Source: an uncultured Gammaproteobacteria bacterium (GTDB taxonomy: Bacteria; Pseudomonadota; Gammaproteobacteria; Magnimaribacterales; TMED112). Taken from it: a DNA stretch of 61,029 nucleotides. A program made the translations under genes and the position numbers. The stretch covers positions 1 to 61,029 of the forward strand of contig CAJWAI010000004.1 in assembly GCA_913020145.1 (NCBI GenBank), in the 5' to 3' direction. The notes beneath the pieces were generated by a model. The model was not told the DNA's origin. It made no database searches and saw only the letters and a program-made list of their open reading frames with translations. Shown in pieces: positions 57,045 through 60,840 of the stretch (position 1 is its first letter; the number at the start of each line of letters is the position of its first letter).

Positions 57045-57743
57045 TTAGTAGATGCCATCTACTTCTATAGAGCTTTCTTGAACTTTTATAAGCTCACCTT
57101 CATTGTTTTTAGCAACCATTTGGCCATTCGAATCAATTCCTAAGAATTCCAAGCGCTCATTACTAGACTTAATTTTCACAAATTGACCAATATGCACACA
57201 TTTTTTTATCCAATTTGATTCCCAAGAGCTCGATAATTGATCGTTAGTAATCTCTAGCAGACGATTAGATAGATCTTCTATTAACGATTCTTTTAATGAT
57301 TCATCAGATTTATCGATGCTTAGATCTCCCCAGTGTTTTTCTTCAGGATCAATCTGAAGATTTATACCTATACCTATTACAGTAATAAAATCTTTACCTA
57401 AATTCTGAGTTTCAACTAATATGCCTCCAACTTTCTTAGATCGATAGATCAAATCATTTGGCCATTTCAAACCTACATCGATATTAAAAACCTTCTTTAA
57501 AGCATCTGTTGCAATTAAGCCTGTTTTTATACTTGCTGCTGAAATTATCTTTTCTGATTTATAACCAAACGAGTAAGAAATATTGCCATGCGGACTTTTC
57601 CAATCTTTTTGGTTTCTTCCTCGCCCTCTAGTTTGTTTATCAGCCGTTATTACTATAGGCATTTCACTTTCTTTACACTTTTCAAAACAAATATCATTTG
57701 TTGAAGTAACTTCTTGGTAATGTGAGCGGTTATACTTAGGCAT
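57045..57743 (-). CDS. birA: Biotin-[acetyl-CoA-carboxylase] ligase, monofunctional (no HTH)
   Basis: STND, QTRGRGR..W.SP, LKWPNDL, KVGGILVE, GIGIN. Confidence 0.94.
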   Translation of the reverse strand: MPKYNRSHYQEVTSTNDICFEKCKESEMPIVITADKQTRGRGRNQKDWKSPHGNISYSFGYKSEKIISAASIKTGLIATDALKKVFNIDVGLKWPNDLIYRSKKVGGILVETQNLGKDFITVIGIGINLQIDPEEKHWGDLSIDKSDESLKESLIEDLSNRLLEITNDQLSSSWESNWIKKCVHIGQFVKIKSSNERLEFLGIDSNGQMVAKNNEGELIKVQESSIEVDGIY

Positions 57744-58428
57744 TCCTATCTTTCAATTGAAGAGGAACGTATATCAGATAAGTAAGAAGCCAAGCTACAG
57801 GAATTAACGCAACTATATGATAAGGAGCTTCAGGCATCGCCTGCATTATATTCTCGCCGTAAGGCTTTTCTAGGAGATACCAATAGTTTGTATCTAAAGC
57901 AAAGTTTATTGTGTACATTGCTGGCAAGAAACCAAAAGTGCTCCATAACATTGTAGCGAAATAGTCTTTTAAGTAAGGTCTTTCATTAGTTAAAGTCAAA
58001 ACAAATGAAACTCCTAAAAGAATGAGCGTATGACCATACATATGATTCAAATAATCGAAAGAAGGAAAACCAGTTAAAGTATCAGGCGTTAAAACCGACA
58101 TTCCTGCACCTGCAATTCCCCAAAAAAAAGCAAATAGGAAGAACATTCTATGCCCACCTAATAGATATATAGAAATACATATACTTGAAAATGCACACAT
58201 ATGAAGAGGTAGGGAATCTTTTACAATTTCACCGAAAAAAGCCACCTTGAGAAATGGGTCAAGTACCTCATGAGATAGCATTAAGAAAGCTAATACATAT
58301 CTAGCAATAGTAATGGTTCTTTCACTGCTACCAATAAAAAATCTAGGCAAATATACAGAAATACCAATGCAAAAAGCAGCAAAAATAATGTGTGAAGGTG
58401 CTAATAGGTTAAATGCTTCTGCTTCCAT
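57736..58428 (-). CDS. TIGR02206/YwaF (TMEM164-related) integral membrane protein
   Basis: LPLHMC, FFWGIAG..LTPD, YGH, NYWYL.KP, PEAPYH. Confidence 0.85.
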
Positions 58429-60097
58429 GCTCTTTAATTAAATCAGCTGCTTTTTCTGCAATCATGATAGTTGGGGCATTAGTATTACCCCCTACTAAAG
58501 TTGGCATAATTGATGCATCAACAACTCTTAAGTTTTCTACTCCCTTAACTCTGAGAGAATTATCCACTACAGCCATATTGTCGATACCCATTTTACATGT
58601 TCCAACTGGATGGTAAATAGTATCAGACCTTGTTCTTATGGCCGTCTCAATAGCTTTATCATCATCAATATTTATTGGATTACGAATATTGTTAAATTTC
58701 TTTAAAGGCTCAGTGGTCATTATTTCCATCATTTTTTTATAGCCTTTAATTAATACTTCCATATCTGATTCTGCTGTTAGATAGTTTGGATCAATTAGAG
58801 GTGCAACCGTAGGATCTTTAGAGGCAATTTTTACTGTCCCTTTTGACTCAGGTCTTAATAAACAAACATGACAACTAAATCCATTGCCCCAAAGTTTAGT
58901 TCTGCCGTGATCCTCAACCATAGAAACAACAAAATGCAGCTGTATGTCTGGCATTTCAAGTGTCTTATCTGTTTTAATAAATGCTCCTCCCTCGGCTAAA
59001 GAAGATGAAAACATACCTGTGCGAAGCAACAGATACTTTAGAAGTTCAAAAGGAGCACGAAACCAAAACTTAAATGATCTGCTGCCCATCAATTCCCAAC
59101 TATCGACCCTATGTGAAGTTATATAATCTATATGGTCTTGTAGATTTTCTCCGACTCCAGGAAGATCAATTAAACAATCTATATCTTTAGTCCTCAAATA
59201 TTCTTTATTGCCAATTCCTGATCGCATTAATATTGATGGTGAGCCATACGCTCCTCCACAAAGCAAAATTTCCTTGCTTGCTTTAATAGAGAAAGTTTTA
59301 TCTTTTTTAATGCACTTTACACCGACAGCCTTTAAGCCATCAAATTCAACTTTTTCAACTACTGTTTCAGTAAAAATTGTTAGATTTTTTCTATCTTTAA
59401 CTGGATTTAGATATGCCACTGCTGCACTACATCTCTGTCCATTTTTTTGAGTAACCTGATAAAGGCCAACTCCTTCTTGCTTCTCTCCATTGAAATCATT
59501 ATTTTCAGGATAATGTTTTGAAGCTGCTTCGACAAAGAACCTTGTAAAAGGATTGTCATGTCTTAATTCTGCAATATTTAGTGGACCATCATTTCCATGA
59601 TACTCATCTTGCAATCTCTCATTACATTCAGACTTTATAAAATATGGCAGCACCTCATCATATGACCATCCATCATTTCCTAAAGAGGACCAATGATCAT
59701 AATCCCAGCGATGCCCCCTTACATATAACATTCCATTTATTGAACTAGAGCCACCTAATGTTTTTCCTCTTGGCTGAAATCCTCTTCTTTTTTCTTGGTG
59801 TGATTCTGGAACTTTATAGGAGCCTCCAAGTGTATCCTGCATGTTTGCGGAGCCTTCAGTTACAGTAACGCTATTAAATCCTTTTTGAGGTTCAGTATTA
59901 TACTGATAAGCGTATTCTGATTCTTCACCTTCTTTTACAAGAAAAGCAAACAATCCAGGAACATGTATTAAAGGACTTTTATCTACAGGACCTGTTTCTA
60001 TTAAACATACTTTTTTATTAGGGTCTTCAGTCAGTCTATTTGCCAATACACAACCTGCTGAGCCACCCCCAACAATCACATAATCAAAATCTATCAT
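58409..60097 (-). CDS. GMC oxidoreductase (AlkJ-like alcohol / choline dehydrogenase family)
   Basis: [67 protein letters not shown] resembles the AlkJ type. Confidence 0.94.
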
Positions 60098-60840
60098 GCT
60101 TTCTTAAATTTATCCCAAACTAAAAATGGCAAATAAAGTGAAAAGAACACAGCAAGCGATAAAGGAATGACACCTAGCATATGAAATGGCGCAGCAGGCA
60201 TGAAATCCATTAAAGATGCTCCACCAGGCGTGTCCATTAAATACCAGTAATTTGCTATGTCAGAAACATTTTCTCCAGTTACAGGATCAACATAAGTAAA
60301 GCCACCAATAATTAAATTAATAATGTATATAGGTATTAAGAGAAGTAAGGAAATGGCTGCCATCTTTAAGAAATTCTGCAAATAAGGTCTATATTTAAGA
60401 ACAGCTAAAGCAAAGAAAATTCCTAAGACAATTTGCCCATGACCATAGAAAAACATAAAGTACTCAATATCTGGCCAGGCATAATCTAAGTCAGGAGTAA
60501 TTAGTGCCATTGTTGCTCCACCAATTCCCCAATAAAATGGAAGCTCAAAAAACATCTGATCTTTTTTCTTGGTTAACAGAAAAATTCCAATTAATACAGC
60601 ACTAAAGTTACACATATGTAATGGCAAGAAAGTTTGCCATGGCCTATCAAAACCATAGATGTATATAAACGGCTTTGCAATTTCAAAAACTAGTAAAGAA
60701 ACACCTATTACTTTAGCTGCCATATCCTGACTCTTTGTGTTTATAAAGTTACCTAAAAGGCATAGAAAAACTATTACTACACCTGAATAAATTAAAGATA
60801 ATACGTGCTGATCCCCAAAAAGAATAAATGGTTCTGTCAT
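60094..60840 (-). CDS. TIGR02206/YwaF (TMEM164-related) integral membrane protein (paralog)
   Basis: LPLHMC, FYWGIGG..ITPD, FFYGH, NYWYL..P, PAAPFH; AGGGGGA SD. Confidence 0.87.

Follow-up and report, generated by a model that had tools for sequence, protein, structure and literature searches.

Two genes for putative intramembrane acyltransferases, here called paralogs A and B, enclose a gene for an oxidoreductase of the GMC family (GMC) that is dependent on flavin adenine dinucleotide (FAD), and are followed by the biotin-protein ligase gene birA, on a contig of an uncultured SAR86 bacterium (CAJWAI010000004.1). We refer to this whole 61,029-nt contig as the window and to its genome as G000. 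The four overlapping genes are best explained as a lineage-specific, tightly packed operon in a SAR86 genome that is streamlined (about 1 Mb, 35% GC). Sequence comparison places A and B as anciently diverged paralogues in the YwaF branch of the TMEM164 (ATGY) superfamily. A, GMC, B, and BirA are each clear members of known families, and what is new is the derived, lineage-wide arrangement A-GMC-B. Our account draws on what was observed of the genes and their families, of protein folds and conserved residues, and of distribution and synteny; the acyl-Cys chemistry (from human TMEM164), the sidedness in the membrane, the hand-off of a product to GMC, and the class of substrate are what we infer. 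That A, GMC, and B work on one lipid pathway is a possibility that we place slightly short of an even chance.

The window is one complete contig from an assembly of 0.93 Mb and 83% completeness, and the GC content is about 35%. A preliminary description of this DNA reported four overlapping genes in the order A, GMC, B, and birA. All four were recovered as open reading frames (ORFs) at exactly the same coordinates, and their families were confirmed with Pfam and NCBIfam:

60840..60094, minus strand: paralog A, ORF of 248 aa; YwaF/TMEM164-type, seven-helix, putative intramembrane acyltransferase
60097..58409, minus strand: GMC FAD oxidoreductase, ORF of 562 aa; PF00732 and PF05199
58428..57736, minus strand: paralog B, ORF of 230 aa; YwaF/TMEM164-type, putative acyltransferase
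57743..57045, minus strand: birA, ORF of 232 aa; TIGR00121; group I biotin-protein ligase

With the first start codon of each ORF taken, the overlaps are 4 nt (A/GMC), 20 nt (GMC/B), and 8 nt (B/birA). Chance is no concern for the four-gene observation, because it is based on gene calls and profile matches. Contigs from marine metatranscriptome libraries (four libraries, three studies) match portions of all four genes at 92-100% identity; two records span the A/GMC junction (X3 record 17 and X4 record 28) and one spans the B/birA junction (X1 record 2). These contigs covered 11-19 of 30 bins per run, uncovered bins counting as no evidence. They are a weak sign of presence that is silent on strand, level, and a single transcript and is compatible with DNA carry-over.

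Family, fold, and conserved residues of A and B

Paralogs A and B match the Pfam family PF14808 with 138.6 bits (E = 2.8e-40) and 99.7 bits (E = 2.2e-28), respectively, against a cut-off of 25 bits. Their respective scores of 136.4 and 140.8 bits against TIGR02206 (cut-off 75), which NCBIfam currently names 'TMEM164-related integral membrane acyltransferase', make both of them members by curated score of the YwaF/TIGR02206 branch that includes B. subtilis YwaF. The two proteins are 31% identical to each other. Within this branch they stand apart in sharing an operon with each other and with a GMC enzyme, and their family is rare in Gammaproteobacteria: PF14808 was found in 6 of 400 sampled genomes of this class, including four SAR86 genomes and one unpublished genome (G351). 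No second Pfam domain was found in the longer relatives (298-402 aa). One B-type relative of 252 aa (P0293) has precomputed Pfam matches to both PF14808 and PF00329 (complex I 30-kDa subunit), maybe as an artefact of gene calling at a contig end.

AlphaFold2 modelled both proteins with seven long helices, with a predicted local distance difference test score (pLDDT) of 94.3 and a predicted template-modelling score (pTM) of 0.90 for A, and values of 96.1 and 0.91 for B. Human TMEM164 (PDB 9lw1_A) was the sole strong structural match in the PDB for either model. It aligned over 187 residues of A (Z = 13.9, root-mean-square deviation 4.0 Å; runner-up Z = 6.5) and 185 residues of B (Z = 14.0, 3.8 Å; runner-up Z = 6.7), and Foldseek also ranked 9lw1_A first for A (E = 0.066, probability 0.99). 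Residues 34..247 of A aligned with residues 85..280 of TMEM164, which by offset, not residue by residue, puts Cys77 and His134 near C123 and H181. A complex prediction for A with B, run without controls, scored 0.14 against a mark of 0.32 and carries no weight either way on a heterodimer.

Among characterized relatives, TMEM164 is described in the accessible part of a preprint (Reed et al., 2023; 10.1101/2022.07.06.498872) as performing C123-dependent, CoA-independent acyl transfer. The same part of that source defines the ATGY superfamily with an uncharacterized prokaryotic YwaF branch, includes in it GPC1, which acylates glycerophosphocholine, and provides a precedent for ester cleavage in the AIG1/ADTRP hydrolases. 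Together with the profile scores and the structural match, this bears out the kinship of TIGR02206 proteins to a Cys/His acyltransferase that had been proposed from the DNA alone. The portion available to us of a later paper (Ke et al., 2025; PMC12830759) describes TMEM164 as a homodimer of seven-helix protomers with an acyl-C123 thioester and a metal (Zn) site made up of H181, H124, E106, and C123.

A and B share with TMEM164 the family PF14808 and the helical core, and in A the conserved Cys opens a short helix with the invariant His two helices on. Their conserved His and Glu (His75 and Glu53 in A) recall His124 and Glu106 of the Zn site, as far as that portion describes it, and could form a metal site. 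They differ from TMEM164 in that sequence identity in the structural alignment is 12-13% for both, in that the motif P-x-H-x-C takes the place of Pro122-Cys123-His124 as the accessible text gives it, and in being bacterial proteins of 230-248 aa in a host where ether lipids with polyunsaturated fatty acids are not expected. LhaT (YpjA, DUF1405), a lipoprotein N-acetyltransferase of Bacillus, is also placed in the ATGY superfamily by the accessible part of its report (PMC12345273), which describes bimolecular acyl transfer from a lipid donor at the outer membrane face. Such outer-face activity agrees with the periplasmic-side active site predicted below for A and B, whereas LhaT, on the same partial text, differs in being a six-helix DUF1405 protein that has acetyl-heptaprenylglycerol as donor and a protein N-terminus as acceptor.

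Multiple sequence alignments show which residues the family retains. In an alignment of 118 sequences (A, B, and 116 relatives), P116 and H134 (A numbering) are invariant, and H12, P73, C77, G108, P123, P152, N175, N197, P205, P218, and P238 are conserved in at least 90% of the rows. With B as reference (99 sequences), C78, P115, and H133 are invariant. A separate MAFFT alignment of 179 rows (A, B, and 177 full-length relatives) gave conservation of 85% for His75 and 72% for Glu53. Both A and B keep all of these residues, and thus neither looks like a dead copy. The four motifs of the preliminary description, i.e., LPLHMC, WG..G..TPD, YGH, and NYWYL, are readable in both translations, but YGH proved not to be a family motif: the family conserves only its His, with 41 of the 177 full-length relatives showing [YFW]GH. 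A nucleophile (Cys, Ser, or Thr) and the invariant His of a dyad are present in A (Cys77/His134) and in B (Cys78/His133). By analogy with the acyl-Cys chemistry of human TMEM164, Cys77 of A and Cys78 of B are the candidate nucleophiles.

Conservation and history of the arrangement within SAR86

The SAR86 family of the window genome, f1, comprises one genus, of which 30 species were sampled; f2, f3, and f4 denote its sister families in SAR86. Both A and B are present in 27 of the 30 f1 genomes, G000 included, and the three genomes lacking a match are 75, 79, and 84% complete. The paralogues lie 2.3-2.7 kb apart on one contig in 24 of the 27 genomes and are split by the assembly in the other three. 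GMC was found between them wherever coordinates were compared, i.e., in 19 other genomes of the genus, five fetched loci, and three loci from the motif scan described below. The 19 genomes are those with A, GMC, and B on one contig in a sample of 40 (24 of the genus and 16 of other families), five species of the 30-species set standing outside this check. Identities within f1 reach as low as 66% for A, 65% for GMC, and 48% for B, and A-GMC-B stays in place across the family while the genes downstream vary.

The sister families present a different picture. A single TMEM164-like copy occurs in f2 (6/6 genomes) and in f4 (5/5), and two copies, far apart, occur in f3 (5/5). GMC orthologues with 56-59% identity are encoded in f3 and in two f4 genomes, away from the TMEM164-like copies; in f3, the two paralogues and the GMC orthologue are hundreds of kb apart or on separate contigs. 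In an unrooted maximum-likelihood tree of 37 rows, B of f1 and the f3 copies linked to a PlsC-type gene form a clade (support 100/99) to which the DsbD-linked copy of f3 is sister (99/95), and A of f1 forms its own clade (100/100). A follows HSP20-DsbD-redoxin-HNH in f1, the A-like copy of f3 follows HSP20-DsbD, and four further SAR86 loci have the order DsbD-HNH-TMEM-PALP. Since the orthologues are dispersed in f3 and the position of A is kept, it follows that GMC and B were brought beside A in f1. Most simply, A was already in place in the ancestor of f1, and GMC and B were relocated to its side together with birA.

In several SAR86 lineages (L035:8516-9028, L036:11707-12246, L073, L105, L130, and L132), the place between DsbD (or a redoxin) and the A-type gene is taken by a small HNH-endonuclease gene, a position that is unusually stable for such a gene.

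Other neighbours of the orthologues are suggestive of function. In f3, the B-type gene is followed, after a 7-nt gap, by a gene for a 200-aa acyltransferase of the PlsC/LPLAT type (L027:10494-11096 and L029:8913-9524) that matches PF01553 and falls below the cut-off of TIGR00530. This partner gene is present in both f3 genomes inspected (2/2) and was found neither in G000 nor in three of three near-complete f1 genomes. The pairing of a B-type protein with a PlsC-type acyltransferase in f3 may be a better handle on the function of the family. The single copies of f4 lie between two long-chain acyl-CoA synthetases, one of them just over its curated cut-off (NF006134, 626.8 bits vs. 625), and a short-chain dehydrogenase/reductase, and those of f2 adjoin a glyoxalase-like protein, an MFS transporter, a Rieske protein, and an enoyl-CoA hydratase. 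The GMC orthologues of f3 adjoin a steroid-5-alpha-reductase-like membrane protein, an epimerase/3-beta-HSD, a patatin, and a TonB-dependent receptor; in one f3 genome, the neighbours are a fatty-acid hydroxylase, a ceramidase-like protein, and OYE. Those of f4 adjoin Zn-ADH and NMO. These contexts consistently point to hydrophobic acyl or alcohol compounds, not choline. We also considered lysophospholipid transport of the LplT kind and rejected it, as the MFS genes near the four-gene unit or the f2 copies match no lysophospholipid-transporter model.

Distribution beyond SAR86

When 185,579 species genomes were scanned with a degenerate motif, at least 120 stretches were returned, and the flanks of 80 of them were examined. 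The scan covers members that carry W-G-x2-G-x3-A-L-L-T-P-D and shows roughly 1.6 kb to either side of the gene. Among the matches listed, 78 of the 80 flanked stretches, spread over many phyla, encode a TMEM164-like protein, and a GMC gene is adjacent in three of the 78. In these three loci, A is about 71% identical to that of the window, and they therefore belong to the same SAR86 genus. Hence the GMC linkage did not stand as a general neighbourhood of the family, the survey finding it, among the matches listed, in one genus-level lineage only. The earlier proposal was to fall if linkage to GMC and to atu-like genes was not conserved in other genomes; on this point, A-GMC-B is kept in f1 wherever it was compared, but it is absent from the sampled sister families and from the other loci listed, and AtuA is patchy.

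Neighbours of the TMEM164-like genes are otherwise heterogeneous among the matches listed, with few repeats. A kinase of the FGGY (glycerol/sugar) type adjoins the gene in five Neomarinimicrobiota loci (L063, L093, L094, L121, and L133), and GlpX with a methyltransferase, DnaJ with CarA, and HNH with PALP recur in a few clades. The FGGY kinase or the GlpX and methyltransferase neighbours may hint at glycerolipid metabolism.

Predicted sidedness and a possible shared lipid pathway

The topology of A and B was predicted from the distribution of positive charge. Across the 118 aligned rows, the mean number of K and R residues is 7.84 in loops L1, L3, and L5 plus the C-terminal tail, compared to 2.39 in the N-terminus and loops L2, L4, and L6, although the latter set is about twice as long. 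By the positive-inside rule, this bias argues for an N-out, C-in topology for both proteins. H12, P73-H75-C77, T115-P116-D117, H134, N175, and N197-Y198 would then all lie in the periplasmic half of the membrane. In the model of A, the helix that starts with Cys77 is only 15 residues long (76-90), and this Cys is therefore probably within the outer leaflet. GMC has its Rossmann motif right at its start and no signal peptide, and would therefore be expected to act at the cytoplasmic face.

We propose the following mechanism. A and B would be seven-helix enzymes of the inner membrane whose active sites lie in its periplasmic half. Most likely, an acyl chain would be taken from a membrane lipid ester onto Cys77 or Cys78 as a thioester, aided by the invariant His (His134 in A, His133 in B) and the neighbouring His and Glu, and would then move on to a lipid acceptor or water with no involvement of CoA. 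GMC would be a cytoplasmic, probably membrane-peripheral, FAD-dependent alcohol dehydrogenase. The three proteins would form a co-expressed lipid-processing set: A and B would deacylate or re-acylate a lipid ester, GMC would oxidize the resulting hydrophobic alcohol or hydroxy-lipid once this had crossed the bilayer, and the aldehyde would enter fatty-acid catabolism. In its most specific form, the proposal has A and B as a periplasm-facing, CoA-independent acyl-Cys pair that removes or exchanges the acyl chains of a lipid ester, either exogenous or from the envelope (e.g., a wax, steryl, or phytyl ester, an acyloxyacyl lipid, or a lysolipid), and a SAR86-specific GMC that oxidizes the released lipid alcohol on the cytoplasmic side using a quinone as acceptor. 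Stated this fully, it is put forward tentatively and is unlikely to be right in every part.

Several observations weigh against a pathway shared by A, B, and GMC or against the acyl-Cys chemistry. The active sites of A and B are predicted to be on the periplasmic side and that of GMC on the cytoplasmic side, so a direct hand-off would require the product to flip across the bilayer. In the structural model, the equivalence of Cys77/His134 to C123/H181 comes from the aligned ranges alone, and profile searches of PDB sequences with the family alignments did not retrieve 9lw1, their sole match being a chance one (E = 1.2). Adjacency to GMC is absent in the 16 sampled genomes of f2, f3, and f4 and is confined to one genus-level lineage. 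No GMC adjoins the other 75 TMEM164-like loci among the matches listed within about 1.6 kb on each side, and none of 141 neighbour proteins is a GMC by Pfam (74 of the 75 loci; L077, with no ORF over the motif match, was left out). Finally, birA is included in this overlapping unit in every one of the 27 genomes, and in genomes this streamlined, membership of the operon is thus no proof of shared function.

The same observations bear on the strongest alternative, in which A and B are lipid acyltransferases, GMC is an alcohol dehydrogenase unrelated to them, and streamlining has compacted four unrelated genes with no shared pathway into a single transcription unit. The constant presence of the clearly unrelated birA, the opposite predicted sides, and the 75 loci with no GMC all agree with it, as do the genomes themselves, which are about 1 Mb in size with many overlapping genes, and the f3 orthologues of A, B, and GMC, which work while dispersed. 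It accounts less readily for the position of two paralogues of a rare family on either side of one third gene, for the maintenance of this arrangement across the lineage while downstream genes turned over, and for the loss in f1 of the PlsC-type acyltransferase gene that accompanies B in f3. We consider packing with no shared function a serious possibility, albeit clearly below even.

The flavoenzyme between the paralogues

GMC contains both domains of its family, matching PF00732 with 173.2 bits (E = 8.7e-51) and PF05199 with 135.6 bits (E = 2.2e-39). The FAD motif GGGSAG occupies residues 10-15, and HPVGTCKMG aligns with the active-site His region of 9lq0, 8b7s, and 8rpg. In these features and in the absence of a signal peptide, it resembles GMC enzymes of the BetA and AlkJ type. 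BetA and AlkJ are membrane-peripheral and quinone-linked. A literature search found no paper joining AlkJ, GMC, ubiquinone, and membrane. GMC is the sole member of its family detected in G000. Its closest plasmid-borne relatives are 48-49% identical and uncharacterized, and the gene contexts of two of them (H1 hcfC and H6 Marinobacter) are uninformative; annotated betA genes are 37-39% identical.

Judged from its sequence, GMC is not a BetA equivalogue, because it scores below the cut-offs of both BetA models (NF002550, 587.1 bits vs. 605; TIGR01810, 489.3 bits vs. 732.1), shares 39% identity with E. coli BetA, and has no BetB equivalogue for company in the 83%-complete G000, where the best match to TIGR01804, located on another contig, scores 409.8 bits (cut-off 668.6). 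The clustering with BetA that would have undermined the preliminary description was thus not seen. GMC further differs from BetA in an insertion of 27 residues at about residues 73-99 (window 59800-59882), relative to E. coli BetA and the PDB relatives, and no bet genes were found near the four-gene unit. These differences bear on the alternative that A and B act on choline-bearing lipids and that GMC is a divergent choline dehydrogenase. The top NCBIfam models of GMC are choline dehydrogenases, as is its top PDB sequence match (9lq0, 351 bits), which is followed by the chloramphenicol oxidase CmO (8b7s, 337 bits) and alcohol oxidases; GPC1, moreover, belongs to the ATGY superfamily on the partial evidence of Reed et al. 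(10.1101/2022.07.06.498872). Against this stand the scores below both curated cut-offs, the higher identity to uncharacterized GMC proteins than to E. coli BetA, and the bet genes and BetB equivalogue that were not found, and we regard choline-lipid salvage as quite improbable.

The insertion separates the GGSS motif from the first FAD-binding segment and is probably shared by the SAR86 orthologues of other families, which align over their full length. A single in-frame stop codon interrupts each of the GMC orthologues of three relatives (TGA in G023:C10:1343-3016 and G021:C36:1-1167; TAG in G035:C6:24344-26020), which may reflect assembly error, pseudogenes, or recoding.

birA and the genes downstream

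The profile match of birA to TIGR00121 (131.1 bits; cut-off 83.1) and its length of 232 aa, with matches to bifunctional BirA models that begin at model positions 83-87, identify it as a group I biotin-protein ligase lacking the N-terminal DNA-binding domain. It lies directly downstream of B in all 27 f1 genomes that have B. The gene is also single-copy in f2, f3, and f4, where it is placed elsewhere, and G000 has only this one biotin ligase match. For these reasons, we read birA as a housekeeping passenger that must serve acetyl-CoA carboxylase anyway, and the functional link through birA that had been suggested is not supported. BirA is 95% and 81% identical in the two closest relatives and 42-59% (mostly 42-51%) in the rest of the genus. 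It diverges much faster than its neighbours, the values in more distant species being 65-77% for GMC and 66-80% for A.

Downstream of B, the window contains the following further features:

57032..57059, minus strand: terminator-like hairpin with an 11-bp stem, from a consensus scan; spans the birA stop codon
57007..56387, minus strand: GST (Pfam); downstream neighbour, outside the four-gene unit
56302..54653, minus strand: acyl-CoA carboxylase carboxyltransferase (Pfam); downstream neighbour, outside the four-gene unit
54656..52719, minus strand: biotin carboxylase with BCCP (Pfam); downstream neighbour, outside the four-gene unit
52714..50951, minus strand: AtuA (Pfam); downstream neighbour, outside the four-gene unit

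Beyond AtuA come genes for an enoyl-CoA hydratase, a flavoenzyme of the NMO family, and an MFS transporter. The hairpin at the birA stop is a possible 3' end of the four-gene unit, but it is merely suggestive because the scan found three terminator-like sites where 2.5 were expected from shuffles.

The preliminary description coupled the unit to a biotin-dependent, atu-like pathway: A and B would hydrolyse wax, phytyl, or geranyl esters, GMC would oxidize the alcohol, and the acid would enter the pathway served by birA. A cassette with AtuA, the carboxyltransferase, the biotin carboxylase, and enoyl-CoA hydratase does lie just downstream in G000, and the AIG1/ADTRP hydrolases are a precedent for the ester cleavage as far as the accessible part of Reed et al. 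(10.1101/2022.07.06.498872) describes them. AtuA was found in 15 of the 30 f1 genomes; in 13 of these 15 it shares a contig with the unit, at a distance of about 4-13 kb from birA. However, AtuA has no match in 12 of the 27 genomes with A, B, and birA, including G008 (a single contig, 93% complete), G007 (91% complete), and G001, and the proposed coupling does not survive this. In G008 and G001, an MFS gene comes directly after birA, and the GST, carboxylase, and AtuA genes do not follow it at these loci. The patchiness of AtuA and the MFS gene after birA show that the cassette of GST, carboxylase, and AtuA genes is an independent neighbour, variable in presence and absence within the genus. 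The ester pathway is further disfavoured by the need for birA, as sole biotin ligase, in any case, by the hairpin at the birA stop, and by the fact that the window's cassette has no acyl-CoA dehydrogenase of the AtuD type. We consider this reading very improbable. A literature search found no paper joining SAR86 with acyclic terpene.

Remaining alternatives and significance

That A and B are mainly membrane anchors or electron-transfer partners of GMC, not enzymes, would suit the sandwiched gene order and the translational coupling suggested by the overlaps, but it is highly improbable given that both keep all conserved catalytic-site residues, that the loops on the cytoplasmic side are very short, at 3-6 residues apiece in both proteins (family means 4.5, 3.1, and 6.0), and that the family works with no GMC in the other lineages sampled. 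What probability remains goes to readings other than those set out here.

SAR86 is an abundant, uncultured marine lineage that is reputed to live on lipids. In line with the preliminary description, for which no described bacterial function was known for this arrangement, a literature search found none for the YwaF/TIGR02206 family or for A-GMC-B. Our analysis corrects the first reading of this DNA: the links to birA and to the atu-like genes arise as side effects of a packed genome, and adjacency to GMC does not extend to the family in general. The A-GMC-B operon, together with the link between B-type and PlsC-type genes in f3, provides concrete, testable hypotheses on the role of the family. 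If A and B are indeed an acyl-Cys pair acting with GMC, this would be the first function assigned to the bacterial YwaF branch and would represent a new route of ester-lipid catabolism in a highly abundant ocean heterotroph.

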